64,000 nucleotides of DNA from Ignavibacteriota bacterium (GTDB taxonomy: Bacteria > Bacteroidota > Ignavibacteria > UBA10030 > CAVZMI01). The stretch lies in assembly GCA_963776275.1 (NCBI GenBank), contig CAVZMI010000006.1, positions 102,453 to 166,452 of the forward strand. The letters are read 5' to 3'. The notes beneath the pieces are model-generated. The model worked only from the letters and a program-made list of their open reading frames with translations. It made no database searches and was not told the DNA's origin. The translations under genes were made by a program, and so were the position numbers. Shown one piece after another: positions 37,215 to 59,953 of the stretch. Each line of letters opens with the position of its first letter. Positions within the stretch are counted from its first letter, which is position 1.

Positions 37215-39473
37215 TTATCGAAGCAGGATCATTTTCTTGGTTTCAGAATATTTACCTGTCTTGAGTTGATAAAAGTAAATTCCACTAGGCAAGTTGTTTG
37301 TTTCCCAGCGTACTTCATATTCACCTTCTCGCTGAAATTTATTAACTAAAGTGTTTATAACTCTTCCTAGCACATCATACACTCTTAATGAAACAAGACC
37401 TGATTTAGGTAAATAATATTTTATTATTGTAGATGGATTAAATGGATTAGGATAATTTTGAAATAGTTTTATTTTATCGGGAAGATTGTTGCTAATATTA
37501 TTATCATTTTTTATCGAGACTACACCGCCACCGTCGATAGTTTTAATGATTCCATTTCCAATCGACCACCCTGTGCTTTCATTTATAAAAAAAATATTTG
37601 ATAATCCACCTTCATTTTTACATGGACTTTGTTGTTCATTCCAAGTATATCCGCCGTCAGTTGATTTAAGTATAAGAGAGGTACGGTTTAAGAAATCAAA
37701 GCCTGATATCCATCCGATATTTTCAGTAACAAACTGTATTGAAAAATTATAACCAGATGGCGTTGTACTGCATGGAACCCAAGAATTACCTCCATCTGTT
37801 GTTTTAAGAATATTATTATTCCCATTGGAAGAAGCGACAACCCAACCCATTTCCGAATTAATGAAATCGAAAGAGTTAATCGATGTTATTGGAATAACTT
37901 GTGGTTCCCAATTCTTACCTCCATCCATAGTTTTTAAAGTGCCACCTATCCACCCCACATTATCATTTATGAATTGCACTCTCCCATCCGGTTGCACTGA
38001 ATCCAAAACCACTATTTTCCATGTGATTCCTTTATCATCCGTTTTCAGTAATGATCCTGTGCCTGAAATCCATCCTATCGAATCATTAACAAAAGTAATT
38101 GAATTAAATCCATATAATGAATCATAAATTTGTTTTTGCCATGTCTGTCCGCCATTTATCGTTCTAAATATTAATCCGGTTCTATCATAAATCGATAATC
38201 CTTTTATAATCGATCCTACTGCAAATATATTTTGCGTATCAATTGCATAGACTGATGACAACAATGTGCTCTCAACAGAATTTTGTATATCCCAATTATC
38301 CCTTCCGTTTGTAGTATGAAGAATAATACCGCTGTCGCCTACAGCCCAACCGTTATATTCATCAACAAAATAAATCGAGTTGAAATGATAATTCTTATCT
38401 CTTTGCGGAACCCAGTTACCTCCCGCATCTGTAGTTCTGTATATCATACCGAACTGTCCTACTATCCAACCCGTGTTGTCGGAGGATTTGTTTGAATACC
38501 TTGTCTTGTAAAAGTGATGCATCATTTCATTATTATTATTTGCTTCCTCAGTCCAATTCTCTCCACCATCTGTCGTTTTCAAAATGAAGGCATAATAATC
38601 GCCTCCGACAATCCAACCGGTCAATGAATCAGTAAAAAATATCGAGTAGAAATATTGATACTCTTCTTTTTGATATTTCGTTGAAAGATTCTGGTATTGC
38701 CAAGTATTACCTCCATCGGTAGTTTTTAAAAAAGTACCGTGTGCTCCCGTAATAAATCCGTTATTCTTATCCGTAAAACAAATATCATTAAGTCCTGGAA
38801 AAACCATCGGCTGAATAATATTCCCGTTCCATTGCCACGTTCTTCCGCAATCCGTAGTCTTATAGATTTGATTGCCATAAAATCCAAGTCCAATAATCCA
38901 TCCTGTTTGTTTGTCTGTAAAGGTTATTGCAGTCAAATCGAATACATCCAACCAACCTTCACCGATATAATCATCTATCTTTCTCGTGTCCCAGCTTTGC
39001 CCGCCATTGCTCGTTCTTAAAAGAATTCCATCTTCTCCTATAACAAAACCTGTGTCGGCATCCACAAAATACACTGCATTGTAACATAACGAAGCGTCGG
39101 TTTTTACCTCCGTCCAGTTTTTACCGCCATCATCGGTTTTGAGTAAAATATTTTTTTGTGAATCCTTGATGCCACCCGCCGCCCAACCGTTTAATGAATC
39201 GATAAAATGAACGCTGTACAAATCGTTGGGAGTGCCACCGGCATGGTGTTGTACATCCCAATGTATCCCACCATCTGTCGTTTTTATAACCGTTCCCAAG
39301 TCACCTACGGCAATTGCCGATTCATTATTAAAAATATAAATATCATTCAGATTATTGCCTTGTGGTTTCGGATACTGCCAGAACCAGCCTTCCTGAGAAG
39401 ACGCTCGTGCAAATGAGAGGAATATGATCACAAATAACAATAAACAACTCGATTTCATGTTGTTATACCTCAT
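37215..39473 (-). CDS. YCF48/BNR-repeat beta-propeller protein with T9SS-type CTD
   Basis: Repeated KTTDGG.(N/T)W motifs; CTD QNYPNPFNPST...KKMILLR. Confidence 0.9.
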   Translation of the reverse strand: MRYNNMKSSCLLLFVIIFLSFARASSQEGWFWQYPKPQGNNLNDIYIFNNESAIAVGDLGTVIKTTDGGIHWDVQHHAGGTPNDLYSVHFIDSLNGWAAGGIKDSQKNILLKTDDGGKNWTEVKTDASLCYNAVYFVDADTGFVIGEDGILLRTSNGGQSWDTRKIDDYIGEGWLDVFDLTAITFTDKQTGWIIGLGFYGNQIYKTTDCGRTWQWNGNIIQPMVFPGLNDICFTDKNNGFITGAHGTFLKTTDGGNTWQYQNLSTKYQKEEYQYFYSIFFTDSLTGWIVGGDYYAFILKTTDGGENWTEEANNNNEMMHHFYKTRYSNKSSDNTGWIVGQFGMIYRTTDAGGNWVPQRDKNYHFNSIYFVDEYNGWAVGDSGIILHTTNGRDNWDIQNSVESTLLSSVYAIDTQNIFAVGSIIKGLSIYDRTGLIFRTINGGQTWQKQIYDSLYGFNSITFVNDSIGWISGTGSLLKTDDKGITWKIVVLDSVQPDGRVQFINDNVGWIGGTLKTMDGGKNWEPQVIPITSINSFDFINSEMGWVVASSNGNNNILKTTDGGNSWVPCSTTPSGYNFSIQFVTENIGWISGFDFLNRTSLILKSTDGGYTWNEQQSPCKNEGGLSNIFFINESTGWSIGNGIIKTIDGGGVVSIKNDNNISNNLPDKIKLFQNYPNPFNPSTIIKYYLPKSGLVSLRVYDVLGRVINTLVNKFQREGEYEVRWETNNLPSGIYFYQLKTGKYSETKKMILLR

Positions 39474-40323: not shown

Positions 40324-42300
40324 TTATGGACTCCTCTTTTGAACGGCCGCACCCTGGTTGAGAAACCGCACAAATTCTTCCGGATTGCGGGTCAGTCCGG
40401 GGAATCGTGCGACCTCCCGATCGTCGGGCGAGAGGATTACATAGAATGGAAGAGCGATCGTTCCGAACCGGTTTTGCTCGAATAACCGGTTTCTGTCATA
40501 TTCGCTCCCGCTGCCGTCGGTATAGAGACGCACAAGAATAAATTTCTTCAGCTGTGCTTGTACGTCATCGCGCAAAAATATATTTGCTTCCATCCACCGG
40601 CAATTCGTGCAGGCAAAGCCCGTGAAATTGACAAAGATGTTTTTTCCTTCTGTCTTCGCTCTTTTCAATCCATCCTGATAATTCGAAATCCATTGCTCTT
40701 CCTCCACTGCAGTTCCGGATCCATTTAGTTTCCCGATCCACCCCGCAATATGACTATAACTCCGCGGTGGAAGGAACGCATCGAGCTCGCCCAGCGGTGC
40801 ACCAATGAGTCCTGTGAAAAGGAAAAATACCGCTGCTAGGAAGAAAACCGACCACAGCATTCTGACAACCCCTATTTTCTCCACCGGTGCATCATGTGAG
40901 AAAGAGAAACGTCCCATGAGGTAGAGCACCGTCATTATTGCAATAGCGATCCACAAAGAGAGAAACACTTCACGATTCAAGATGCCTGACTGCAAGACGA
41001 GATCGACGTTGCTGAGAAATTTCAGAGCAGCCGCCAGCTCGAGAAATCCCATGACGACCTTCACTGCATTCAACCATCCTCCGCTCTTTGGAAGGCGGAC
41101 GAGAAACGACGGAAATAATGCGAGCAGGAAAAAGGGCAGTGCGAATGTAACCGAAAATGCAAGCATACCGATAATCGGCCACATCCACTCTCCCTGTGCA
41201 GCAGTTACCATCACCGTTCCAACAAACGGCACCGTGCATGTGAAGGAGGTAATGGTAAATGTCAGCCCCATCAATAATACACCGGCCATGCTGTTAGTGT
41301 TCGAGTATTTAGTAAGTTTTGTCAACAGAGATGACGGCAGAATTATTTCGAAGGCACCGAAAAGATTGACGGCAAATGCAATGAATATACCCGCAATTGC
41401 CAGATTCACCCACGGATTCGCGGCAAATTGATTTAAGCCCGATGCACCGATTGTCAGTGCAAGAGCAAAGCCCAGCGCCGTGAATGTAAAAATGATGCCC
41501 ATGCTGTAGACAAGCGCATCGGCAATTCCCTTATTCCGTTTCCCCTCCCTGCGTTTTGTAAAGTACGAAACCGTAATTGGAATCATCGGGAAAACGCACG
41601 GTGTAAGAAGCGATAATGCTCCGAGCGACATCGCGAGCGTAAGATAATTCCATAAACCTTTTGCCTTTGCCTTAGCGACGATATCTGCGGGATCGATGCT
41701 GTATGTTTTGGGTTGGACGGCATCCGGGATAAATCTCGACGAATCTGGTGCGCCGTTTGACTGGCGGAGTTCCGGTATCTGAGATCCCGCCGCCCGTGTA
41801 ATTGATTCCTTTGACGATTGTTTTGCTTTTATGACTGTAACGGGAACTTCAATTATTTTCGTCACCGGCGGCAGGCAGACGGTATTACTGCACACCATGT
41901 ACCGCGCTTTGAGAATAATTTTCTGATTCCCATGCGGTGTATTGGCTGCGATCTTTACGGGCACTTCGAAAATTACATTACCGGAAAAATATTCCGTATT
42001 TATTCCAAACGATTCGTCATATGAAATTGTCGGGACAGGTTGTTTCGGCTGACCGGCAAGTGAAAAGAACGACTCTTCACTCATGCTGATCGATGTCGGA
42101 ATCGGTCCGCCCTCGGGCTGTGTGAGCGAGTAGATATGCCATATATTACCGATTCGCGCGCGGACCGTGACCATGACAATCGAACCGGCGGACACTTGTT
42201 TCTCTTTCACAGAACCAGACCAGCGCACGGGGTCCTGTGCACAGAGTTGTGAAGTCAGGATTACGAACAGCAAAAAAAAGAATCGTCGCATAGATTTCAT
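40324..42300 (-). CDS. dsbD: Protein-disulfide reductase DsbD family
   Basis: N-domain CSNTVCLPP, TM domain LLTPCVFPMIP and SFTCTVP, thioredoxin CTNC. Confidence 0.92.
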   Translation of the reverse strand: MKSMRRFFFLLFVILTSQLCAQDPVRWSGSVKEKQVSAGSIVMVTVRARIGNIWHIYSLTQPEGGPIPTSISMSEESFFSLAGQPKQPVPTISYDESFGINTEYFSGNVIFEVPVKIAANTPHGNQKIILKARYMVCSNTVCLPPVTKIIEVPVTVIKAKQSSKESITRAAGSQIPELRQSNGAPDSSRFIPDAVQPKTYSIDPADIVAKAKAKGLWNYLTLAMSLGALSLLTPCVFPMIPITVSYFTKRREGKRNKGIADALVYSMGIIFTFTALGFALALTIGASGLNQFAANPWVNLAIAGIFIAFAVNLFGAFEIILPSSLLTKLTKYSNTNSMAGVLLMGLTFTITSFTCTVPFVGTVMVTAAQGEWMWPIIGMLAFSVTFALPFFLLALFPSFLVRLPKSGGWLNAVKVVMGFLELAAALKFLSNVDLVLQSGILNREVFLSLWIAIAIMTVLYLMGRFSFSHDAPVEKIGVVRMLWSVFFLAAVFFLFTGLIGAPLGELDAFLPPRSYSHIAGWIGKLNGSGTAVEEEQWISNYQDGLKRAKTEGKNIFVNFTGFACTNCRWMEANIFLRDDVQAQLKKFILVRLYTDGSGSEYDRNRLFEQNRFGTIALPFYVILSPDDREVARFPGLTRNPEEFVRFLNQGAAVQKRSP

Positions 42301-42310
42301 CGTCGATAGT

Positions 42311-42769
42311 TTACGTCAATTCACACACTGTTGCTCCGGCAGCTTTTATCAGATCATTTGGATCGAGCAGAACCTGTATTCCCCTCATCCCTGCACTGAC
42401 ACTTATGAACGAGTGGAGCAGTGCGCTTTGATCGATAAACACCGGATATTTCTTTTTCCCACCGAGGGGCGTGCAGCCGCCGCGGAGATAACCTGTTAGC
42501 CTGAACACATCGTCCACATCGACAAGTTCCACTTTCTTGTCACGGGTGAGGCGTGCGAGTGTTTTCAAGCTGAGTTCATGGGTTCCGGGAATACACACTT
42601 CCATGATGCCGTTCCGGTCGCCGCGTACTACAAGCGTCTTAAAAACCTGTGCGAGCGGAATTTGAAGCTTTTCGGCTGCCTCTTCTGCCGAAAGAAGTTC
42701 TTCTTTAAATTCTCTTATATCGTAATGGATCGAAAGTGAGTCGAGTATTTGAGCGGCGCGTGTTTTCAT
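42311..42769 (-). CDS. ybaK: Cys-tRNA(Pro) deacylase YbaK
   Basis: MKTRAA, VFKTLV, TGYLRGGCTPLG, SAGMRG. Confidence 0.92.
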   Translation of the reverse strand: MKTRAAQILDSLSIHYDIREFKEELLSAEEAAEKLQIPLAQVFKTLVVRGDRNGIMEVCIPGTHELSLKTLARLTRDKKVELVDVDDVFRLTGYLRGGCTPLGGKKKYPVFIDQSALLHSFISVSAGMRGIQVLLDPNDLIKAAGATVCELT

Positions 42770-42811
42770 GATGCTACTCAAAGGTACGAAAAAGGATCAT
42801 GAAAGGAAATG
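42733..42811 (+). repeat. 79-bp direct repeat, copy 1 (ybaK 5' end plus upstream)
   Basis: 73/79 identical to 44611-44689 by hand alignment. Confidence 0.9.
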
Positions 42812-43013
42812 CCGTTCTCATGCCCGATCAATCCGCTTATTTGTCTGTTTTTCTTTCATCAAGGCGCGAAAAACGAAATCATTTGTTTCATGAGAAGCGG
42901 CACGGAGGTTCGGAGTGAGTACTATCTTGCGCCTCTTCTACTAAGTTTTAATTGCTTGTTAGTGATGAAGACCATCGTCAGCATTACCTGGTCTTATGAT
43001 GCTGAAACAAGCG

Positions 43014-43107
43014 GTATAACGGCGGAGTCGAGCGGAGTCCGCGTAATGCAGGAGCGCTGAAGGCGCGACGGAGTGAAGCGGGCTTCCACTCCAACGATTT
43101 GTTATCT
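43014..43107 (-). mobile_element. attC site (canonical)
   Basis: Minus strand AGATAAC-AAATC-GTTGGAGTGGA...TCCGCTCGAC-TCCGCC-GTTATAC imperfect palindrome overlapping the cassette gene stop. Confidence 0.85.
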
Positions 43108-43780
43108 ACTGTGAACTCATTTTTCGTTCAGCAATTTTTTTCATTTGTTGCTCTTGAGTACCAGTTCCCGAAATGTTTGAAGTGGCCGTCTGAATTGCAT
43201 CTTTGGCGTATTCCAAGAGTGCTACCCCTCCGGTACCTTGGAGGCTTGCTTCCTTGCCCGCCCATTGCAAATAATCTTCATATTCCCTGAGTTCATTTAT
43301 GTTTGAGATATACCCAGCCTCTTTGATAATCGCTTTTGGTGGATTCTCTTTGCTGAATTCAAGTTTCTTTCGTTTGACAGGCTTGAAACTATTTGACTTC
43401 TCATATTGTAAACGGAGATTACGTATGTTTCCCACTTCGCGGTCAACTTCTAACTTTAAAATCTGTGCCTGACGGATTTTTTCTTGGGCTATTTTGACGT
43501 TTTTATCGGCAATGGCTTTTACTTCCGTAAAAATTATTTTGATAGCATCCTGAAAGTCGGGTTTGCTCCTTTTTTCTTTTTCCACAAAGGTTTCCCAAAC
43601 TTTAAGGATTTGGGCCTCCGGTTTTTTATCCCAGATCATCCGTGCGATCTCCTTCAGCTTCTCTTGCTGTAATGAGCTAAAATTTCCGGCAGAAAGAGAC
43701 TGGGCCTGAAGTGGGAGTAATAAGGTCATCAATACTACAATTGATCCCGATAACAGGGCATAGAAAAACAATTTCTTCAT
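43106..43780 (-). CDS. Cassette-borne hypothetical exported, helical protein
   Basis: AAAGGAG RBS, signal peptide MKKLFFYALL...LQA/Q; bounded by GTTATCAC and an attC. Confidence 0.75.
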   Translation of the reverse strand: MKKLFFYALLSGSIVVLMTLLLPLQAQSLSAGNFSSLQQEKLKEIARMIWDKKPEAQILKVWETFVEKEKRSKPDFQDAIKIIFTEVKAIADKNVKIAQEKIRQAQILKLEVDREVGNIRNLRLQYEKSNSFKPVKRKKLEFSKENPPKAIIKEAGYISNINELREYEDYLQWAGKEASLQGTGGVALLEYAKDAIQTATSNISGTGTQEQQMKKIAERKMSSQ

Positions 43781-43802
43781 TTTTCTGTGTCTCCTTTCAA
43801 TG

Positions 43803-43869
43803 TGATAACAATAATTAGACTGATCCGTATAAGATACGGAGTTCTGGTTTTGTGACCATTCAACACGCC
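43803..43869 (-). mobile_element. attI-like module, copy a
   Basis: 51/60 identical to 52023-52082; ends CTAATTATT-GTT at the cassette start. Confidence 0.65.
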
Positions 43870-43945
43870 GCCTAACGAAAGAATTCAGCCGTGTTGTGGG
43901 TGTGGTTTGTGCACCCGCAATGTCGGCTGGAATGTCACGTTCGAT
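43870..43945 (-). mobile_element. attC site (canonical)
   Basis: Minus strand ATCGAAC...TTCCAGCCGAC...CGGCTGAA-TTCTTTC-GTTAGGC; the R'' ACATCGAAC is complementary to the cassette start GTTCGATGT at 44477. Confidence 0.85.
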
Positions 43946-43949
43946 GTTT

Positions 43950-44450
43950 TTAGTCACCCGAACACCCTTCAAAATATATTTCTTTTGGAATATCTTTTTC
44001 ATAAACAATCAAATACACTGCCTGAAACCGTATAATATTCAAAGTTTCCGATAGACATCCATGTTTTGATTCAACATCCCCGTGAGAAGGTTTAATTGTA
44101 CCATAGATCTTTTGAATAATATCCCTGGGTGCAGGATAGGCTATGCCAATATTCGGTTCCGTGCTAATCCTTTCAATATCTATAATGGTGTGAGTCCCTG
44201 CTTCGGCAAATGCTTCCCGCAAATCATCAATGGATTTTATTGGGCCGAATTCTCTTAGCACCTGTTCATCGAGTGTTTTTAACATGTCAGCAGATGCTTT
44301 TAACTGCGGGAATTGTTTCAAGAGTTCCGGAGTGAATTGGCTGGCAGGCCCATACTTACCACTTTCTAAAACTTTTTGTTGCAACTCTTGCAATGCTTTT
44401 TCAATGTTTTCTTGATATGGTGTAAAATAATCCCAACCGGTTGCTCCCAT
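43950..44450 (-). CDS. Cassette-borne hypothetical protein
   Basis: GGGAGG RBS, 166 aa ORF exactly between GTTCGAT and an attC. Confidence 0.8.
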   Translation of the reverse strand: MGATGWDYFTPYQENIEKALQELQQKVLESGKYGPASQFTPELLKQFPQLKASADMLKTLDEQVLREFGPIKSIDDLREAFAEAGTHTIIDIERISTEPNIGIAYPAPRDIIQKIYGTIKPSHGDVESKHGCLSETLNIIRFQAVYLIVYEKDIPKEIYFEGCSGD

Positions 44451-44470
44451 TTTACCTCCCTATTTGTGAC

Positions 44471-44536
44471 ATCGAACTATAATTAGATTGATCCGCATAA
44501 GATGCGAGGTGATTGCTTTTGCCAGTATAACATGCC
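44471..44536 (-). mobile_element. attI-like module, copy b (head of array 1)
   Basis: AAC-TATAATTAGATTGATCCGCATAAGATGCG shared with copies a and c; distal half more diverged. Confidence 0.65.
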
Positions 44537-44610
44537 CTCGGCATAACACGACCGCATAAATGATTTCAAAGATCGTCTACCGGACTGTGAACGCCCGCCG
44601 GTTCACGGTT

Positions 44611-44689
44611 AAAGTAAGTCGAGTATTTGAGCGGCACGGGTATTCATGATGCTGCTCAAAGGTACGAAAAAGGATCGTGAAAGGAAATG
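44611..44689 (+). repeat. 79-bp direct repeat, copy 2 (orphan ybaK 5' fragment)
   Basis: Encodes MNTRAAQILDLL on the minus strand versus MKTRAAQILDSL in ybaK. Confidence 0.9.
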
Positions 44690-44902
44690 AAAACCAGATA
44701 CTTGGCCGTTCTGAGAAAAATAGGTGCATATACTCTGTGGCAAAGAATGAAGGGTGCTCATGTTCAGATTATACCGGATGAGACGGGTTGACTGTTCTGG
44801 TTTGATTGGGAACGATAAGCTAACGCTTTTTTGTTCTTATAAGTAGCGCTTGATCACTTTTTCGGAATGAACAGACAATATTCAAAATGAGAAGTAAAAA
44901 AA

Positions 44903-44931
44903 TTGACTTTAACAGCCTTTTTTCGTAAATT
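44903..44931 (+). promoter_or_regulatory. Putative rplU promoter
   Basis: TTGACT, 17 nt, TAAATT. Confidence 0.55.
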
Positions 44932-44979
44932 TATTGACTTTTAATTATAGATACCACGCTTACTTAGGAGGAATTCAGG

Positions 44980-45288
44980 ATGTACGCCGTTGTAGAGATA
45001 GCAGGACACCAGTACAAAGTAACCCCGTCGAGTAAATGCTTCGTTCCGAAACTTGAAGGTGAAGCAGGGACAAAAGTGGAATTCGATAAGGTGTTACTGT
45101 TGGCTGACGAGAATAATATTAAAGTCGGTGCGCCGATTGTTGATGGTGTGAAGGTCGAAGCGACCGTTCTTGGCCATGTTAAAGACGATAAAGTCATCGT
45201 TTTCAAAAAGAAACGGCGGAAAGGTTACCGGGTAAAACGGGGTCATCGTCAGCAGTACACAGAAATTGAAATAACAAATATCGGATAG
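44980..45288 (+). CDS. rplU: 50S ribosomal protein L21
   Basis: MYAVVEIAGHQYKV, FKKKRRKGY, GHRQ. Confidence 0.98.
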   Translation: MYAVVEIAGHQYKVTPSSKCFVPKLEGEAGTKVEFDKVLLLADENNIKVGAPIVDGVKVEATVLGHVKDDKVIVFKKKRRKGYRVKRGHRQQYTEIEITNIG

Positions 45289-45335
45289 TAAATCCCGATT
45301 CGCGATATGCTCGGGAGATGTAAGGAGAAAAAGTC

Positions 45336-45587
45336 ATGGCTCATAAAAAAGGCGCCGGCAGCTCACGAAACGGCCGCGAGAGCAACGCTCAACGACTCGG
45401 CGTCAAGGCATTTGGCGGTCAGCGGGTAACCGCCGGAAGTATTATTATCAGACAGCGGGGTACAAAATTTGCTCCCGGAGTAAATGTCGGTATAGGCAGT
45501 GACGACACGCTTTTTGCGTTAGTCGATGGTGTTGTGAAGTTCGAGCAGCACAGTAAAACGAAAAAGACCGTCAGCGTATCCGCATAA
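45336..45587 (+). CDS. rpmA: 50S ribosomal protein L27
   Basis: [16 protein letters not shown]. Confidence 0.99.
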
Positions 45588-45634
45588 GTTCTTTCAATAT
45601 TTTTTACAACGTTCCGTTTCGAGGGACTTGATAG

Positions 45635-45835
<201 letters not shown>

Positions 45836-45857
45836 TTTTTTTACTTGCTATTAATGA

Positions 45858-45894
45858 CTCCGTGTACCATTCAGTTCGGGATACGGAGTTTTTT
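45858..45894 (+). terminator. Intrinsic terminator after rplU-rpmA-mdh'
   Basis: ACTCCGTGT...ATACGGAGT stem followed by a T run. Confidence 0.65.
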
Positions 45895-46000
45895 ATGAAA
45901 AAAAAGTTGATCAGATATATTTTCCCCCATCGACTCATCCCGACAATCCCACTGAGAAACGTGGGATGTAAGAAACACGAGAACGTCGGGATTCGCTCGA

Positions 46001-46125
46001 CGACCCGCTCCGCCGAGCGTCCGCCTCGGCGAGCCGAAGGCGAGACGGGGAGCGAGGCGAGCCTGTCCGTCGGAATCCGTCGAAGGCGGATGGAGGCGGA
46101 AGTCGTCCTTTAGGGCAGGGTAAAT
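46001..46125. repeat. Composite REP-like element
   Basis: 46001-46061 matches 10433-10493 (inverted); 46062-46104 matches 49856-49898 (38/43). Confidence 0.8.
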
Positions 46126-46166
46126 TTTTTAATTTTTCCTTTTTAATTTTTCCTTATCTTTTGGTT

Positions 46167-46937
46167 ATGATACTTCCACTAGCCATCGAAACTGCCAAAC
46201 AAGCCGGCATTTTCCTTAAAGCCAACATCGGCAATATTACTACCATCGAACAGAAATCATCCGAAATCAATCTCGTAACGGATATCGATAAACGTTCGGA
46301 AGCGATGATCATCGGCGCGATTAAAAAGCAATTCCCCACTCATGATATCGTCGCAGAGGAGAGCGGGAGAAGCGCAGGAACGTCAGACTACCGCTGGATT
46401 GTTGATCCGCTTGACGGCACGACAAACTATATGCACGGCCTACCGATGTTCTGTGTTTCAATCGGTATCGAACATAAGGGAGAAATAATTGCAGGCGTCA
46501 TCTACGATCCAATGCACGATGAGCTCTTCACCGCCGAAAAGGGAAGCGGTGCATTTCTAAATGGAAAGAAAATACGGGTTTCAGCCGAAGATCGTTTGAT
46601 TCGCAGTCTTCTCATCACCGGTTTTCCCTACGATGTTAAAAATAATCCCTTCAATGCCATTGAACATTTCAATAACTTTGTTATCGAAGCTCAGGCAATA
46701 CGCCGGCTCGGTTCAGCAGCGATCGATCTGGCATATGTGGCATGCGGCCGTGCCGAAGGTTTCTGGGAAGTGCAGCTTCATCCATGGGATATAGCAGCGG
46801 GAGTAATCATCATTCGTGAAGCGGGCGGCACGGTGACAAATTTCGAAGGAAAACCGATGAACGCCTATACTCCAAACATCGTGGCAAGCAACGGGAAGAT
46901 CCATGACGAGATATTGCGAGTGCTTTCAAAGTGCTGA
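46167..46937 (+). CDS. suhB: Inositol monophosphatase family protein
   Basis: WIVDPLDGTTNY, RRLGSAAIDL, PWDIAAG. Confidence 0.93.
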   Translation: MILPLAIETAKQAGIFLKANIGNITTIEQKSSEINLVTDIDKRSEAMIIGAIKKQFPTHDIVAEESGRSAGTSDYRWIVDPLDGTTNYMHGLPMFCVSIGIEHKGEIIAGVIYDPMHDELFTAEKGSGAFLNGKKIRVSAEDRLIRSLLITGFPYDVKNNPFNAIEHFNNFVIEAQAIRRLGSAAIDLAYVACGRAEGFWEVQLHPWDIAAGVIIIREAGGTVTNFEGKPMNAYTPNIVASNGKIHDEILRVLSKC

Positions 46938-46974
46938 GAGATTGCCGAATGAGTATTGTGGATTGCGAAATACG

Positions 46975-47023
46975 GAATTTTCGCGCGGCCGAAGGCCAAA
47001 TCGCCTGCAGTCGCGGGTTAGCT
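46975..47023 (-). mobile_element. Truncated terminal attC (left half only)
   Basis: Minus strand AGCTAAC-CCGCG-ACTGCAGGCGA 17 nt after the cassette stop; no matching right arm. Confidence 0.5.
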
Positions 47024-47040
47024 GGTATAATACTAGATTA

Positions 47041-47448
47041 CTATCGATTGTGAAATGAAGTGCGTACAGTTGCTAACCGTTTGCGATGATCGCAATACGG
47101 TCGAGCGTAGGTAGCAAAATCTGTGGTTGACAGCTTATCGATTAGATTTGGTACTCCATCCCAGACAGACTGCGCTTTTTCCAAATTAACACAAGATTCA
47201 ATTGGACATTCAGCACAACTACCGAATCCTTTGGATCGGCAGCAACGTCGCGCTTTGCAATTACGGCTTGTGTGAAATACTTCATCGTCTGGCCCGAGAC
47301 AACCATTGCATGAAATATGCTCGACCGTCTCATTCAGTTCATAGATTCTATACCATGCCTCAATTGTCCTCTTCTGATGCGCAATTCCTTTCGTCACCCC
47401 AAGATATGCCGGGCACTCCGAACAAAGCACTCCACATGCAGACATCAT
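47041..47448 (-). CDS. Cassette-borne DUF3795-like Cys-rich protein
   Basis: ACGVLCSECPAY, CNGC, C.ARRCC, CAECP..SC. Confidence 0.8.
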   Translation of the reverse strand: MMSACGVLCSECPAYLGVTKGIAHQKRTIEAWYRIYELNETVEHISCNGCLGPDDEVFHTSRNCKARRCCRSKGFGSCAECPIESCVNLEKAQSVWDGVPNLIDKLSTTDFATYARPYCDHRKRLATVRTSFHNR

Positions 47449-47494
47449 ATTGACCTCTATTCCATTGCCAATGGAAATTTCTATAGTTGGTGCC

Positions 47495-47606
47495 GCCTAA
47501 TGGATGGCGGCTCCGCCTACGTAAATAACACTCCGGCACTTGACCGCTGGAGTTTGCTTTGTAACGCAGGCGGGCTCATTCCGCTAGCTTGAGCACCTAG
47601 TCAGGT
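47495..47606 (-). mobile_element. Degenerate attC (A)
   Basis: Minus strand ACCTGAC-TAGGT-GCTCAAGC...CCATCC-ATTAGGC; shares ~45 bp with sites B and C. Confidence 0.7.
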
Positions 47607-47621
47607 TGCCCAAATCATTTT

Positions 47622-48134
47622 TTATGGTAGTTCCTTTAACTCATCAGAGATGGGCGGTTTTGTATCAAAGTACTCATCCATTTCTTTTTCATTCAAGTTG
47701 ACTTGTCTTATTTCTTTGTACTCCTTTTTCTCAAATGAATAATAGTGGACTGTCGCTTCACAACATCCTAGTTTCCAGTAAGTCTCAATTAATGGAAACC
47801 CATTTTCTTTCTTTTTGAGAATGTACACTATTATGCCTTCAACTGTACCGATTTCTTTATTTGTTTTACCATCGATAATAATCCAGGGACAGCCGCCTGA
47901 TCCACAGTTTACTTCGTCGCTCTCGAACTTTTCTGGTATTTTGTCTCCATTCAAGTCGATTGAAATTGTATATGTAATCGTTTCAGATTCTGCTGGAGGA
48001 CTTTGAATGGTGTCAATTTTCGCCGATTGAGAAGTAAAGAATATTTTATAAGGTGAATTAGTTTGAGCAAAGCAAATGCTTATGCCAAAGAAAAACACAA
48101 AACCGAATTGGATTATTTTCATAATTATCCTCAT
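47622..48134 (-). CDS. Cassette-borne hypothetical exported protein
   Basis: Signal peptide, DLNGDKIPE and CGSGGC; flanked by the inverted pair GGTTGCCCAAATC / GATTGGGCAACC. Confidence 0.75.
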   Translation of the reverse strand: MRIIMKIIQFGFVFFFGISICFAQTNSPYKIFFTSQSAKIDTIQSPPAESETITYTISIDLNGDKIPEKFESDEVNCGSGGCPWIIIDGKTNKEIGTVEGIIVYILKKKENGFPLIETYWKLGCCEATVHYYSFEKKEYKEIRQVNLNEKEMDEYFDTKPPISDELKELP

Positions 48135-48147
48135 AGAAGATTGGGCA

Positions 48148-48455
48148 ACCTCACGGATGGCGGCTCCGTCTACGTAAATATCACTCCGGCGCTTGTCCCT
48201 ACGGGTCGTAGACCGCCGGCCTGTCCCTGCCTGCTCGCCGACGCCCGAAGGGCTTAGGCGAGCCTACGTGCCGGAGGCCTTCGCCCGCCGAAGGCTTCAG
48301 CGAAGGCGGGCACTCCGGCAGGCAGGCGCCGTAGTGAAACGAAAGCGGAAGTTTGCTTTTCGACGTAGGCCTGCCTGCGTGCCTCCGGTAGGCAGGCGGG
48401 CTCATTCCGTTAACTTGCTTGCCCCGAATACTCTTCGGGGATGCGCTGGTTAGGC
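48148..48455 (-). mobile_element. Degenerate attC (B) expanded by nested palindromic insertions
   Basis: GCCTAAC-CAGCGCAT[insert]CAAGTTAACGG...CCATCC-GTGAGGT; collinear with site A apart from the insertions. Confidence 0.7.
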
Positions 48456-48503
48456 GGCCGATTATTTATTTGTTTTCGAATCTTCAAAATTTTTTTTCTC
48501 ATT

Positions 48504-49778
48504 TTAAAAATTACCCATTCTTTTAATAATGGTATTTATAAATAGATAAAGGATATAGATGTCAACCATAACAACCATTATAAAGACAATTCTAGGTAGC
48601 CAATGCCCTAAAGGTTTCTTATAAAGAACTCTCAGAGGGCCGAACTCACAAATGAGCCAGAAACCATAGCTGGTTAAAAATGTTAATAAACCCGGTGTAT
48701 GTCTAAAATTAGACGCTGCTTCGATAGTTCCCTTGATATCCGGCAATATGGAGTAAATTAAGTAAATTGAATATGAAAAAATTATTACACCGCCTACACA
48801 CAGAAGCCGACGGTTCGTAGACTCTGACATTTTAGACAATGTATTTAAGGGCCATCCGATAAAAAGAATGAACGATGATATCCCTTGAATTATGAGGTAT
48901 CTGTTATCGATTGCATCAGCAAACCCTTGAACGTGCATTACTATACCCATCACAACTGCAAATAGCCCAAAAGCACCAATCCATGCATTCACACCTAAAT
49001 ATGTAATTAATGGAGCGACTGCAACATCCTTTTTGCCTATAATGTGGAAGAATATTAATTTATTCAAAGGATATACTTTATCTTCTTTTGTTTCCATACT
49101 TTTCTGTACATAATCACTTTCTTTCTGTACTTCTTCAATTGTTTCTCCCGCCAAGTATTTTTCTAATATTTTCTGAATTCTACGGATGTCTTGTTCCGGA
49201 TATGTTGAAATAATTTCTAACTTCCCTTTATCATGTATAAGTAATAGCTTTTTATTTTCTTGGCTCATTGTTCCCTGCAAAGAAGTATTTTGCCATTTTA
49301 TTCTTTGTACTTTTTGTTTTGGCACTGCCAACTTTATCTTTGGTTTGAATCCGAAAAAACTATCTTGAATTACAATTTGGTATGTATCCAAGATTATTGA
49401 ACGTATTGTAAATATCGGCATAATTAATAATTTATAAACGATACACGGTGGGATAAGAAAGAATAGTAATAGAAAATACATGGGACCACGCATATTACCA
49501 AGCTCTCCGTTTCCTCGAAGTAATTCAAATAATACTCGAAAGAAACCTAATGCAATAGGAAGAATACCAAAACCAATTATAAGAAACAATGCGGTAATCC
49601 AGTTACGCCAGTTATTCTTTATGGCATTTGAAGGCACCCAAAAATATTGTATGTGTAATGTATCATGTAAATTATTGTATAAGACCTTTCGAGGAGATTT
49701 TAGATACGCATGAATTCTTGAAAAAATTGAACCCTTCCTTAATTCATTGTATCCATCTGAAGGACAAGTAATAATCAT
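48504..49778 (-). CDS. Cassette-borne hypothetical multi-pass membrane protein
   Basis: 424 aa, AT-rich, ~7 hydrophobic segments, AAGGA RBS just after site C. Confidence 0.75.
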   Translation of the reverse strand: MIITCPSDGYNELRKGSIFSRIHAYLKSPRKVLYNNLHDTLHIQYFWVPSNAIKNNWRNWITALFLIIGFGILPIALGFFRVLFELLRGNGELGNMRGPMYFLLLFFLIPPCIVYKLLIMPIFTIRSIILDTYQIVIQDSFFGFKPKIKLAVPKQKVQRIKWQNTSLQGTMSQENKKLLLIHDKGKLEIISTYPEQDIRRIQKILEKYLAGETIEEVQKESDYVQKSMETKEDKVYPLNKLIFFHIIGKKDVAVAPLITYLGVNAWIGAFGLFAVVMGIVMHVQGFADAIDNRYLIIQGISSFILFIGWPLNTLSKMSESTNRRLLCVGGVIIFSYSIYLIYSILPDIKGTIEAASNFRHTPGLLTFLTSYGFWLICEFGPLRVLYKKPLGHWLPRIVFIMVVMVDIYILYLFINTIIKRMGNF

Positions 49779-49799
49779 AATATATTCCTTATTTATATT

Positions 49800-49981
49800 G
49801 CTTCACGGATGGCGGCTCCGCCTACGTAAATATCACTCCGGCGCTTAACCGCCGACCTGTCCGTCGGAATACACCGGCGGCGGATGGAGGCGGAAGTCTG
49901 TTTCTCAAGACGCAGTCGGGTCAGCTTGTTGAACGTTTTTTGTGAAACCCCGTGTTTTTTACGGGGAGCGCATGGTTAGGG
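49800..49981 (-). mobile_element. Degenerate attC (C) with palindromic insertions
   Basis: CCCTAAC-CATGCGCT[insert]CAAGCTGAC...CCATCC-GTGAAGC; GTGTGCGCCCTAAC complements the cassette start GTTAGGGTGCACAC at 52022. Confidence 0.75.
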
Positions 49982-50019
49982 CGCACACTATTAGTGCGAT
50001 TGTTTTTTTATCAATATGT

Positions 50020-51986
50020 TCATTTTATTTTTAGTAATTCTGAATATGGCACTACACTCTTGAGCAACCCTCCATTCCAGGCACCAATATATATATTAGA
50101 ATCCGGGCCCAATGATAAAAAATTAATGTAAGTCTCGTTTGGTAATCCTGTCTCAAGCTTAGTCCAATTATTTCCAAGATTTACAGATATATATATAAGA
50201 TTATCTTCAGTCGCAACCATAATTGTATTTGAATCACAAATAGCAACCGCAGTGATTTCTTTATTCTTAAAACCTAATTGTTGCCAATTCTTCCCATGAT
50301 CTGTTGACCGAAGTACTCCTGATTCATCGGTACCTAATAGTAGTGTACCTTTTCCATTAATTGCAAAACATTCAACTCCTTTCTCTTTTGGACATAACGC
50401 TTTCCATGTCCGACAACTGTCCGTAGACTGTTGAATAGTTCCCAATCGTCGATCACCGGAATGTAAATCTCCGCTTATAGGTTCGAAGTCAACGATTATA
50501 CAATAGAATGAATTTGTCGACATGTCATAGTGCAATTTTTCTGCACGGTACCATTTATTAGAGAGGGGAATCAACTTATTATCATTTGAAAGTCTATGAA
50601 CGCCTTCATCCAAACAACCGACATATATATTTTCCATCGAATCTATTGCAAGAGATATTGCATCAATATTCCCAAATCCTGAACCTCCTTGATTCAGACA
50701 ATTCCAATGCTCACCTTTGTCAGTTGATCGAAAAATATATCCAGTCCAAGTTACGGCGTATATTCCTTTGCGGTGTCCAATTATAATAGATGTTATATCC
50801 ATATCTTCTAAATATACACTGACATTATTCCAAGTCAGACCAGCGTCTAATGAGCGGTATATACCGAAACTTGAGGTACCAACATAGATACATTCCTTTG
50901 AATCAAAAACGATGGATTTCACGTAAGCCGGTGACCATCCGGTAGTTAATTGTACCCATTGATTGGTAACCCGATTTAGCCGCAAAACACCTCGACCAGA
51001 TGTGCCAATAATGATGTTACTATCAGGCTCAAATGCAACAGATTTAATATAGGTGTTCGGTAATCCTAAGCTCGAAAAACTATTGCCATAATCAAAAGAT
51101 TCAAGGAGTCCACTATTATTGCTACATACAAACAAATGTCCCCTGCCAAGGTCTATTAAAATCTCATTTAGATGTGCTTTTTCTCCGATAGACCAATTGG
51201 CTCCACGATCTTTTGATCGATAAATATTACCATCTCCCATAATGACAACGAAATCGCCATTATCTAAGGCATTAATCACCTGGGCTACATAAGGATACTG
51301 AGCTCCAATATCGCTCCATACACGACCATCATCATTTGAAATCAAAATCCTTTTCTTATCTGTTATAATAAAAGCTTGTTCGTTTTGTCCAAATCCCATG
51401 TTGTATAATTTGCCAACATTTTTTGGAAGTTTAACTGTAGTCCATGTTTTTCCACAATCACCAGTATGATAGATATCCCCATTCTTATACTGAACAATTA
51501 ACGAACCATGCTCAGATAAAAATATGTTCTCCCAAATAGAGTCTGCTCCTCTTTGAATATTTTTCCAGGAATTACCATCATCTATCGAAAATAGACAGTG
51601 AGCAGGAAATGTTCCCAATTTTGCTATTATGCTTCCATTAGTATTACACCTGAGTGCTGCAATTCTCCATGGTGTATTTAGCGATCTGGTCCAAGTGACC
51701 CCATAGTCTTTAGAAATAAAAATACCATTAATATTTGTACCAGCTAGTATATATCCATTTTTGATGACCAAAACAGATAAAATATCATCAGAAAATCTGA
51801 ACTGTTGAGATTTCGCCAGAGAGGTTTACTTCTTTCTTTTGACGAATCCACTGAAACATTCGAAGTGATATTTTTTGAATTGTTTTCATTTTCTTGCTTT
51901 TTATTGGATCGACATCCAATTGGATAAAGTATAAAATATAGAATTATTAGATTACCAAATATTTTTAGTGTGAATTTTATGGGCAT
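50020..51986 (-). CDS. Cassette-borne BNR/Asp-box beta-propeller lipoprotein; frameshift at homopolymer ~51792-51795
   Basis: Lipobox-like PIGC in 51744..51986; S.D.G.TW repeats in 50020..51771; one extra A joins them (SDFSDDILSVLVIK). Confidence 0.8.
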
Positions 51987-52015
51987 AATATTTCTTTATA
52001 GAATATTTGTGTGCA

Positions 52016-52082
52016 CCCTAACTATAATTAGATTGACCCACATAAGATGCGGAGTTCTGGTTTTGTGCCCATATAACACGCC
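52016..52082 (-). mobile_element. attI-like module, copy c (head of array 2)
   Basis: Ends CTAATTATA-GTTAGGG at the first cassette; 85% identical to copy a. Confidence 0.65.
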
Positions 52083-52145
52083 ATAGTATTTCTCCCTGCT
52101 TCCTAATTACAATTCTGAATGGACGGAAATCCTTTAGTATAAACT

Positions 52146-52174
52146 TGTAGGACGATTTGACAAATCGTCCTACA
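52146..52174. repeat. Perfect palindrome, GTAG-type REP-like or rmuC terminator
   Basis: TGTAGGACGATTTG-A-CAAATCGTCCTACA. Confidence 0.7.
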
Positions 52175-52179
52175 TTGTT

Positions 52180-53364
52180 TCACTTCGAATTCTCTAATTG
52201 CTGCCGCTGATCCTCAGGCAGCGCCTGCGATGTCACAAGCTTCAGCTTATCGTCCAGCATATCGAGCTTCCGTGCCGATTCATCGTATTTGTTTTTTGCA
52301 TTTGTCAGATGTCTGCCTACGGTTTCAAAATCCTCCGCAAACCGCTGAAGATCGTTTTGGAGGCGTGAGAGGTTCTGTATAATTTCTTTTGCGCTTTTTT
52401 CGATCTGAAGCCCTTTAAACCCAAGCGAAACAACCTGCAGCTGTGTGTAGAATGTATTTGGGGAAACCGGGAATACCCGGCGTTCATAGGCATATTCATA
52501 AAGACTGTTATCGTCGCCATATACCTCGTTTTTAATGATGGTCTCGTAATAAATATTTTCCGCCGGGATATACATCAACGCAAAATCGAATGTTCCCTCG
52601 TCGGGAAGAATATATTTCTGAGCAATGGCATCGATATGCTTTTTGACGTCATTGATGAAAGTCCGATAGGCCGTCCTTTTCTCGGCATCGGTGTGCGCCT
52701 CTATCATCTTACGGAAATTCTCGAACGGGAATTTCGCATCGATGGGGATGATACCGTTTGGTGTACGGATAATGGCATCGACAGTCTGTCCGTTCCGGAA
52801 CCGGTATTGGGTCGCGTACGATGATGCAGGAATCACCTGCTTTAGAAGTTCTTCGAGCATCAGCTCACCCAATCCGCCTCGCAATTTTGGCGCCTGGAGC
52901 ATTTCTTCGAGTTTCGAAACATTCTGTCCGAGTTCCTTGATTTCCTGTGTCGCTTTTCCTAATTCTCCGAGGTTTTTCTGGACTTCGCCGATCACTTTTG
53001 CCGCACTATCAAGACGGTTGCCAACCTGTCCCGTGGCTTCCTGCACCTGCCGTGTCACACCGGCAAGCTGATTATTAATCATCTCGTTCGCCTTCTGCAT
53101 CTGTTGGACAACGGAAGCAATCTGTTGATTAACACTGTCCGTTGTATTCTTAAGATTTGTCGAAACAGTATCCGCAGTATTCTTCATGCTGCCTGTCATT
53201 TCTCCACGGAGAGCTTCAACCTGCTGTTGAACCAACAGTGCTATTTGAGCCGATTGATCGGACGGCTGTTGTGTCGGCATCGACGGCAGACGCTTCAGGA
53301 TAAGCCATAGAATAACGATGAGTATAATAAACAGAAATCCGACAATAATAAATGTGGCATCCAT
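52180..53364 (-). CDS. rmuC: DNA recombination protein RmuC
   Basis: RGGLGE..LE, PIDAKFP, KYI.P..GT.DFA.MYIPAE, VSPNT. Confidence 0.93.
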   Translation of the reverse strand: MDATFIIVGFLFIILIVILWLILKRLPSMPTQQPSDQSAQIALLVQQQVEALRGEMTGSMKNTADTVSTNLKNTTDSVNQQIASVVQQMQKANEMINNQLAGVTRQVQEATGQVGNRLDSAAKVIGEVQKNLGELGKATQEIKELGQNVSKLEEMLQAPKLRGGLGELMLEELLKQVIPASSYATQYRFRNGQTVDAIIRTPNGIIPIDAKFPFENFRKMIEAHTDAEKRTAYRTFINDVKKHIDAIAQKYILPDEGTFDFALMYIPAENIYYETIIKNEVYGDDNSLYEYAYERRVFPVSPNTFYTQLQVVSLGFKGLQIEKSAKEIIQNLSRLQNDLQRFAEDFETVGRHLTNAKNKYDESARKLDMLDDKLKLVTSQALPEDQRQQLENSK

Positions 53365-53447
53365 AGAACGGTAGTATAAATGTTTTTATGAGTGGCGCGT
53401 GTGGAAGAATATACACAGATGTTAAGGAAAGGTCAATTGGAGAGCCC

Positions 53448-53476
53448 TTGACAATAGAAATTCACTTCTGTACATT
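53448..53476 (+). promoter_or_regulatory. Putative sigma70 promoter
   Basis: TTGACA, 17 nt, TACATT. Confidence 0.55.
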
Positions 53477-53524
53477 GATTTCATTAGAACAATATCTTTC
53501 ATATACTTATTACCGGAGATTTCT

Positions 53525-59727: not shown

Positions 59728-59777
59728 GTCTGTATTCTCCTTAAATAAATTTAAGTATTGATTGTTGACAGGGCATT

Positions 59778-59930
59778 AGTGTCTCGACTGATGCTCGACA
59801 CAAGTGTATCGACTGATGCTCGACACAAGTGTATCGACTGATGCTCGACACAAGTGTATCGACTGATGCTCGACACAAGTGTATCGACTGATGCTCGACA
59901 CAAGTGTATCGACTGATGCTCGACACAAGT
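59778..59930. repeat. Tandem repeat, 6 x 25 bp (AGTGTATCGACTGATGCTCGACACA)
   Basis: Period 25, no spacers; the first copy has one mismatch. Confidence 0.97.
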
Positions 59931-59953
59931 CAAGTTATTTTTGGTACTCGACA

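Follow-up and report, generated by a model that had tools for sequence, protein, structure and literature searches.

The DNA analysed here is a stretch of 64,000 nucleotides (nt) from an Ignavibacteriota bacterium (the window, G000:C6:102453-166452, where G000 is the source genome). Between an inositol monophosphatase gene on the plus strand and an RmuC gene on the minus strand it carries four minus-strand open reading frames (ORFs), separated by three GC-rich repeats that we call sites A, B and C. This part of the window, array 2, has a G+C content below that of its surroundings (Table 1). The four ORFs share one orientation, and each is followed by a single site or by the end of the array. 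Array 2 is probably a small integrase-less cassette array, a cluster of attC sites that has no integron integrase (CALIN), which is fossilising and appears to be frozen.

The locus was compared with that of a sister species (G009), a member of the same family (G018) and a member of a different family of the same order (G057). The RmuC gene, the module at the array head and the phosphatase gene are 89-95% identical between G000 and G009, whereas the cassettes between them differ, with the DUF3795 cassette as the exception: G009 has it at this locus too (L041 4785-5260, 92.9% nt identity). At the array head the homology between the two species runs to GTT and ends at position 52018, and the sequences beyond are unrelated. 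The 3' end of the head module matches a stretch of the attI region beside the integrase gene intI in G057, and we read this module (52023-52082) as a putative attI-like insertion site. The 170-aa cassette has its best relative in the genome G097, at 60% protein identity and with unrelated flanks. The cassette starts fit their own sites to different degrees. The start of the 170-aa cassette (48139-48154) is complementary over 16 nt to 47600-47616, ending in the R'' of site A, and between the start of the BNR cassette, which follows 52016-52022, and the R'' side of site C, 11 of 12 positions are complementary. The start of the 424-aa cassette complements its own R'' at five of seven positions in G000 and at all seven in G057.

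Table 1. Features of array 2 and its flanks, in window positions (aa, amino acids).
Feature	Position	Strand	Remarks
Inositol monophosphatase gene	46161..46937	+	Pfam PF00459, E 8.6e-75; nt identity 95% to G009, 69% to G018; conserved chromosomal flank beyond the far array end
Array end	47023..47040	-	BLAST blocks break at 47032-47036 against G009 L041 5260-5371
Cassette 1 ORF, DUF3795, 135 aa	47041..47448	-	PF12675, E 1.4e-13
Site A, attC of the 170-aa cassette	47495..47606	-	112 nt; inner L' absent
Site A, R' ATTAGGC	47495-47501	-	
Site A, ATCC spacer	47502-47505	-	
Site A, outer L' AGCCGCC	47506-47512	-	
Site A, arm module	47513-47545	-	
Site A, stem	47513-47522 with 47564-47573	-	
Site A, GGAATGAGC	47574-47582	-	
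Site A, L'' GGTGCTCAAGCT	47586-47597	-	
Site A, R'' ACCTGAC	47600-47606	-	
Cassette 2 ORF, 170 aa	47622..48134	-	no confident family
Site B, attC of the 424-aa cassette	48148..48455	-	308 nt
Site B, R' GTGAGGT	48148-48154	-	
Site B, ATCC	48155-48158	-	
Site B, outer L'	48159-48165	-	
Site B, arm	48166-48198	-	
Site B, nested GC-rich hairpin modules	48199-48399	-	
Site B, GGAATGAGC	48400-48408	-	
Site B, CCCCG hairpin	48422-48440	-	
Site B, outer L'' GCGCAT	48441-48446	-	
Site B, R'' GCCTAAC	48449-48455	-	
Cassette 3 ORF, 424 aa	48504..49778	-	no family; 91% aa, 93% nt identity to G057:C15
Site C, attC of the BNR cassette	49800..49981	-	182 nt
Site C, R' GTGAAGC	49800-49806	-	
Site C, ATCC	49807-49810	-	
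Site C, outer L'	49811-49817	-	
Site C, arm	49818-49850	-	
Site C, GC-rich inner part	49851-49947	-	
Site C, CCCCGT hairpin	49948-49966	-	
Site C, outer L'' GCGCT	49967-49971	-	
Site C, R'' CCCTAAC	49975-49981	-	
Cassette 4 ORF, BNR/Sortilin-type beta-propeller, 583 aa	50020..51771	-	Pfam matches
Array head, attI-like module and core	52016..52082	-	module 52023-52082, core 52016-52022; module ends TAATTATAG, then TTAGGG
RmuC gene	52180..53364	-	PF02646, E 3.8e-58; nt identity 93% to G009, 74% to G018; conserved chromosomal flank at the array head

The reference for sites A, B and C comes from integrase-bearing relatives. The pattern CCATCCGTTAGGC, allowing at most one mismatch, had 67 matches in G057, 82 in G047 and 67 in G107, while the pattern read backwards gave 0-5 matches per strand and each of two genomes of another family had 3-5 matches. 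The G057 matches form one-strand arrays that start directly beside both integron integrase genes, and one of the adjoining integrases scores 453 bits on the model TIGR02249 (cut-off 265). In these arrays a canonical site is 155-197 nt long and consists of R'' GCCTAAC, CA, GCGGCT-C-AAGCTGAC, CGGATGAGCG, a GGTAC.TTAAGCATGGC block, an AT-rich part ending TTTGAAAGTTATCAG, GGCAGCTT-AGCCGCC, ATCC and GTTAGGC, so that its 3' half reads GCAGCTT-AGCCGCC-ATCC-GTTAGGC. When the bottom strands of four G057 sites were folded without constraints, two showed an R box of 7 bp and, beyond a spacer of 3 nt, an L box from which a G and a T bulge out six bases apart, the arrangement that Larouche and Roy 2011 (PMC3053210) call T-N6-G in the part of their paper used here. 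Extrahelical bases, the spacer and the variable terminal structure are the functional unpaired attC features given in the portion of Nivina et al. (PMC5027507) to which we refer. The region around intI in G018 (18 kb) contained no recognisable cassette array, so that it gave no reference site. Throughout, attC sites were identified manually by eye rather than with a covariance model. The pattern CCATCCNNNRRG was too loose for triplet counts, and the 13-mer at up to two mismatches gave 85 control matches. A, B and C are true attC sites, which by their sequence are worn copies of the family used by integrase-linked arrays across the order; that this family adjoins intI in G057 is indirect evidence that an integron integrase may recombine such sites as a folded bottom strand.

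Compared with the canonical site, A, B and C keep the R'' box (mutated to ACCTGAC in A), the outer L'', the outer L' AGCCGCC, the ATCC spacer and the position of R'. Outer L' pairs with GCG(G)CT located 2-3 nt after R'', the outer L'' bases being GGTGCT in A, GCGCAT in B and GCGCT in C. The motif GGAATGAGC is present in A and B, and C has only a diverged version of it. Inner L', GCAGCTT, the partner of AAGCTG in L'', was not found when the 330 nt upstream of the three arms were searched for the motif. The L''/L' duplex of A, B and C is thus confined to the outer 6-7 bp, at -5.9 to -9.6 kcal/mol (family mean -7.6), whereas TTAG-type sites of G000 form an L''/L' duplex with extrahelical bases. 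Tested against the attC core pattern (R'' RYYYAAC, R' GTTRRRY), all three sites deviate at R', and A also deviates at R''. The family fits the pattern, with GCCTAAC-like R'' and GTTAGGC-like R' in 20 of the 25 G000 sites that we curated by eye.

An earlier sequence-only reading of this DNA had described the sites as sharing a near-identical right arm, lacking L', having a broken L'' and carrying cores other than GTT, and the observation as such is confirmed. The arm recurs as three copies of 40 nt with at most two mismatches (47502-47541, 48155-48194, 49807-49846), which occurred in none of 100 shuffles, and on the gene (minus) strand it is followed by ATTAGGC, GTGAGGT and GTGAAGC, giving the triplets ATT, GTG and GTG as reported. 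The pairing of left and right arms in A was also recovered, between plus-strand CCGCCTACGT and ACGCAGGCGG, in the DNA fold of either strand, and the CCCCG...CGGGG hairpins of B and C do interrupt L'', directly after its outer bases and before CAAGC. The loss of L' holds for its inner half, because the CAAGCT partner present in the canonical G057 site is gone from all three, but not for the outer half, AGCCGCC, which is retained. Two details were corrected: the break lies at GG|AGCCGCC, where the canonical site reads TT|AGCCGCC, rather than at GGAGC|CGCC, and the R'' of site A is ACCTGAC (47600-47606) rather than GGGCAAC. Intact homologous sites, which that reading had asked for, were found as canonical sites in G057 and, for one site of another array of G000, as an ortholog in G009.

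Both the arm and the hairpin also occur outside array 2. A profile search (nhmmer) found 14 arm copies in G000, and a motif count gave 20 in G000 and three G009 loci together, six of them in G009; 14 of the 20 are followed by GTT, and two G009 copies have no core after the arm. Among 151 genomes of the order the arm pattern occurs in two, both of this genus. A solo copy on contig C25 reads GCAGCTT, the 33-nt arm, AGCCGCC, ATCC and GTTAGGC. The attC of a single cassette present in both species reads GCAGCTT|AGTGCCC in G009, and in G000 has about 150 nt, comprising a small hairpin, a 20-bp palindrome and the arm, inserted between GCAGCT and AGCGCCC. These copies indicate that the arm is a GC-rich insertion inside L', opposite the bulged base, found genus-wide and not specific to array 2. 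Within array 2, site A has the common GTGTTATT form of the arm; B and C alone share GTGATATT (two of 20 arms) together with a GTG core, for which one conversion or duplication event between B and C is possible. The inner modules of B recur at five places without an attC landmark within 1.5 kb (e.g. C7:36059 and C32:76712), and a GC-rich block at 45960-46110, which shares a 43-nt module with C, recurs at nine such landmark-free places besides itself. The inner module of C was found near attC landmarks only, and the arm and site ends lie within arrays, with the exception of the solo C25 copy. Peat-metagenome contigs from other organisms contain the hairpin-type L'' too. The spread of the modules may be explained by inheritance or gene conversion equally as well as by transposition. 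Beside the GC-rich block, a short ORF (45662-45835) resembling the N-terminal Rossmann part of malate/lactate dehydrogenase is cut at 57 aa and may be a gene fragment; a hairpin and the block come after it.

The loss of inner L' can be followed at a site of another array. For one cassette shared by both species, the G000 copy (C30:8802) lacks everything between two CCGCCTNCGT repeats that its G009 counterpart (L044:14643) retains, the deletion ending in CCGCCTTCGT after GGAATGAGC on one side and in the second CCGCCTACGT, in the arm-side module, on the other. C30:8802 has the same junction as A, B and C, and a GTT core. Among the 14 arm copies of G000, only A, B, C and C30:8802 have an upstream flank ending ..AAG(C/T)GCC rather than ATTTATCC or one of its variants and lack GCAGCT, where a match 257 nt upstream of C30:8802 was disregarded as lying in an ORF; three C23 copies of another arm variant are also without an adjacent match. 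The form lacking inner L' therefore makes up four of the 14 arm copies in G000, three of these four with altered cores, and none of the six in G009. Four G009 sites with the same ..GGCA(A/C)GCG|CCGGAGTG junction all have GCAGCTT-ATTTATCC upstream. As A, B and C have the architecture of C30:8802, we infer that deletion between direct repeats was recurrent, which would yield an identical junction without homogenisation.

The odd cores appear to be derived as well. Site A reads ...GCCATCC ATTAGGC GGCAC... in G000 and ...CCCATCC GTTAGGC GGCAC... in its G009 ortholog. Site C reads GTGAAGC, whereas in G057 the same cassette start is preceded by GTTAGGC, a difference of two substitutions, and this G057 GTTAGGC is the exact complement of its own R'' GCCTAAC. 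Comparison with these copies thus shows two of the three odd cores, those of A and C, to derive from GTTAGGC. In the case of B, the R'' of the cassette has a G at the position paired with the core. Altogether, cores other than GTT are found in three of three sites here and in two of the 22 other G000 sites (about 25 sites curated by eye; Fisher test calculated by hand, p ~0.004), and G057, which bears an integrase, retains GTT in 66 of its 67 CCATCCGTTAGGC matches.

Peat-metagenome sequences related to array 2 were available from two runs, as contigs only and with small shares (0.05-0.06); no RNA run was listed. Contigs over 49760-49814 (55 nt), a span that takes in the core of site C, differ from the window in two letters, and at 85% likeness contigs cover the DUF3795 and 424-aa cassettes of relatives. 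Some contigs appear to skip from 48272 to 49918 or from 48359 to 49895; these skips were considered as traces of excision and rejected, because they are joins of repeat modules in other organisms. The 424-aa gene itself lacks 129 nt (43 codons with two CxxC pairs, zinc ribbon-like) that stand directly after codon 7 in G057 and in two sets of peat contigs (gap at 49759/49760, runs X1 and X2).

No integron integrase above the TIGR02249 cut-off was found in G000 or G009. The best G000 scores were 218 and 237 bits against the cut-off of 265, and G009 had no match at E <= 1e-40, while 60 of the 151 genomes of the order have a match above the cut-off. The two G000 proteins, tyrosine recombinases encoded at C22:9542-10312 and C23:235729-236553, score lower with the XerC and XerD models (165-179 bits) than with TIGR02249. 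They were rejected as integron integrases, since they lack model positions ~181-234 as well as the integron-specific insert and have no attC or attI motifs nearby. Partial matches akin to them occur in G018. G000 thus lacks the arrangement of a complete integron, with intI next to attI and an array; three sites and an attI-like head within 4.6 kb, with no intI in the genome, correspond to a CALIN by our manual call. Cassettes have nevertheless been exchanged. Those of arrays on C30 and C4 of G000 recur at 93-97.5% identity and in different order in three G009 loci (L041, L044 and L045), one cassette of the G009 RmuC locus is found on C30 in G000, and the sites that precede one and the same cassette start differ among G000, G009 and G057, with breaks at G|TT.

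These observations are best explained by a stepwise decay. In this genus, as orthologous copies show, GC-rich hairpin modules entered the variable part and, at the bulged-base position, both L arms, the shared right arm being the one inserted in L'. In the G000 lineage, a deletion between CCGCCTNCGT repeats would then have removed the AT-rich 3' half of the site with inner L' GCAGCTT, leaving AGCCGCC-ATCC-R', a course that is visible at C30:8802 and presumably applies to A, B and C. Point substitutions would subsequently have changed the cleavage triplet, evidently in A and C and by extension in B, and the site after the last cassette would be missing. Concerning this last step, G000 lacks a stretch of about 110 nt found in G009 after the DUF3795 cassette, which contains GTGCCGTTCAAAC (R''-like), a hairpin with a T run, and also AATAGTTGG. 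As the genome has no integrase, the changes would be neutral, and excision of the three distal cassettes is expected to be very inefficient by analogy with the class 1 integrase. For that enzyme, IntI1, the part of Frumerie et al. (PMC2811028) considered here reports that changing the first base of the triplet in one partner cuts recombination 10^3 to 10^4-fold and changing the third base in both partners cuts it 17 to 150-fold, figures that cover GTA and GTC, not GTG. Applied to array 2, one partner would be altered in the pair formed by the head and C and both in the pair C and B, and the first bases would differ in the pair B and A. The three distal cassettes therefore look fixed, all the more so as the bulge geometry would also be gone.

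Several points weigh against a frozen array. In the same part of PMC2811028, a third-base change in only one partner is nearly harmless to IntI1. A, B and C have kept their outer L pairing, their spacer and the greater part of the R box, and the ancestral core of B was not recovered from homologues of the 170-aa cassette. Folding did not set the three sites apart by R box: their predicted closing probabilities (A 5e-5, B 2e-4, C 5e-4) overlap the range seen in GTT-cored relatives (3e-5 to 0.93) and the values for two of the four integrase-linked G057 sites (7e-5 and 7e-3). Covariation of L'' and L' was not detectable when partners were shuffled among 19 sites (p = 0.58), both sides being too conserved for a signal. 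The 110-nt difference after the last cassette may represent a loss in G000 or a gain in G009, there being no outgroup and the G018 locus holding other genes. Furthermore, with G000 96% complete and two arrays starting at the end of a contig, an intI may have escaped assembly. Finally, cassettes were shuffled between G000 and G009 though neither shows an integrase; some integrase, since lost or missing from the assembly, may have acted recently, or one may act in trans, and its tolerance is uncertain.

The sequence-only reading had offered two explanations, fixation of the cassettes by homogenisation to a dead attC allele or a non-canonical class of site with other folding rules, and its interpretation is partly supported. 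By canonical rules the sites are indeed defective, with inner L' and the bulge geometry lost and the triplet changed; homogenisation as the cause of the shared arm was not supported. Gene conversion spreading one dead allele could explain the ..AAG(C/T)G|CCGGAG junction common to A, B and C, and the arm variant and GTG core that only B and C have in common. We regard it as rather improbable, since the core of A carries a different change (G to A) next to the common form of the arm, the inner parts of the 112-, 308- and 182-nt sites are unrelated in length and content, and the same junction is seen beside a GTT core at C30:8802, where the deletion between repeats explains it. The arm, moreover, is genus-wide, with GTT after most copies and with neighbouring cassettes that differ between the species.

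It seems unlikely, though less far-fetched, that A, B and C are working attC sites of a non-canonical kind, recognised by an integrase of the genus that needs no more than the outer 6-8 bp of the L box beside the R box and the ATCC spacer and tolerates hairpin branches and GTG or ATT. Such a class is conceivable for the arm as such, because arm-bearing sites mostly retain GTT (14 of 20), flank cassettes whose neighbours differ between G000 and G009, and have counterparts with a hairpin-type L'' in other organisms of the peat contigs; the outer duplexes of A, B and C, with stabilities around the family mean, and the tolerance of IntI1 towards a single third-base change point the same way. For A, B and C themselves it is improbable: the cores of A and C are recent substitutions from GTTAGGC, the triplet GTT is almost invariant in the integrase-bearing G057, the form without inner L' was seen in G000 only and mostly with altered cores, and a T-N6-G bulge geometry is impossible without inner L'. 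A related and similarly doubtful idea is that the GC-rich modules constitute a small family of non-autonomous elements that enter the folded attC at the extrahelical-base position of either L arm (the arm in L', the CCCCG hairpin in L''). The sites carrying them might then still recombine, the genus would use attC sites with three- or four-way junctions, and array 2 would have been locked only by the later deletions and core changes. Most remote is the view that the repeats are structured RNAs, terminators or promoters, or ordinary intergenic repeats of the REP (repetitive extragenic palindrome) or MITE (miniature inverted-repeat transposable element) type. Parts of B and C do belong to GC-rich repeats found also outside arrays, and the hairpins could terminate transcription, with nine terminator-like sites found where 3.4 were expected, a few of which lie within the sites. 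However, Rfam gave nothing at E <= 1 for 42000-53500, promoter-like sites show no enrichment (17 against 18.2 expected), the repeat ends are the R'' and R' cores of sites adjoining the integron integrases of relatives, and cassette content switches between genomes exactly at G|TT.

As a decaying cassette array, array 2 resembles the CALIN described by Cury et al. 2016 (PMC4889954) and Neron et al. 2022 (PMC9024848) in having single-gene cassettes on the same strand, separated by attC sites and with no intI in reach. The sections of these papers on which we draw record integrons in Chlorobi and Ignavibacteriae and propose that CALIN arise by intI loss or by insertion at secondary sites. Array 2 differs in retaining an attI-like head module, and its sites measure 112-308 nt against 155-197 nt for the canonical G057 sites, the CALIN assignment being manual. 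The repeats of Vibrio cholerae are an example of the homogeneous attC families of sedentary chromosomal integrons. Like such Vibrio-type families, the family described here is a single conserved one serving many unrelated cassettes, and it has the T-N6-G bulges, seen in the G057 folds; unlike them, it spans several families of an Ignavibacteria-like order and has been invaded by GC-rich modules in one genus. Repeated insertion of foreign DNA at a fixed position of attC is also known from the attC-inserting elements, group IIC-attC introns and IS1111-attC, in the part of PMC3001079 used here. Compared with the elements treated there, the modules of this genus are 33-150 nt hairpins without coding capacity, located inside L' or L'' at the bulged base.

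Array 2 offers a sequence-level picture of how an array may become immobilised after integrase loss, through invasion by modules, repeat-mediated deletion of one arm and loss of the cleavage triplet, with two of the changes dated by means of orthologous copies. It does not reveal a new system: an orphan array is expected to decay, and freezing is a fate already known for arrays of this type. A single feature may merit specialist attention, the invasion of the L arms by modules. In addition, the canonical attC of 155-197 nt defined here for an Ignavibacteria-like order, with its classical T-N6-G bulges, can aid the annotation of integrase-less arrays.

G000 contains five attI-like modules ending ...TCTAATTAT(A/T)GTT, three on C6, one at C20:155914 and one at C30:1925, none beside an integrase and some inside arrays. 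In the window, a further array (array 1, 43100-44700) has minus-strand ORFs at 43106-43783 and 43950-44450, each preceded by an attI-like module (43806-43869 and 44474-44537), and an attC-like palindrome ending GTTAGGC at about 43870-43945 abuts a module. On either side of array 1 lies one copy of a direct repeat of 79 nt (42733-42811 and 44611-44689, 92% identity), a duplication of the start of the tRNA-editing-domain gene. Elsewhere in the window, eight diverged copies of a 37-nt repeat are spaced 129-414 nt apart in a low-G+C region (37641-39294), and at 59753-59952 some eight units of 25 nt (AGTGTATCGACTGATGCTCGACACA), all containing an inverted repeat, stand in tandem.

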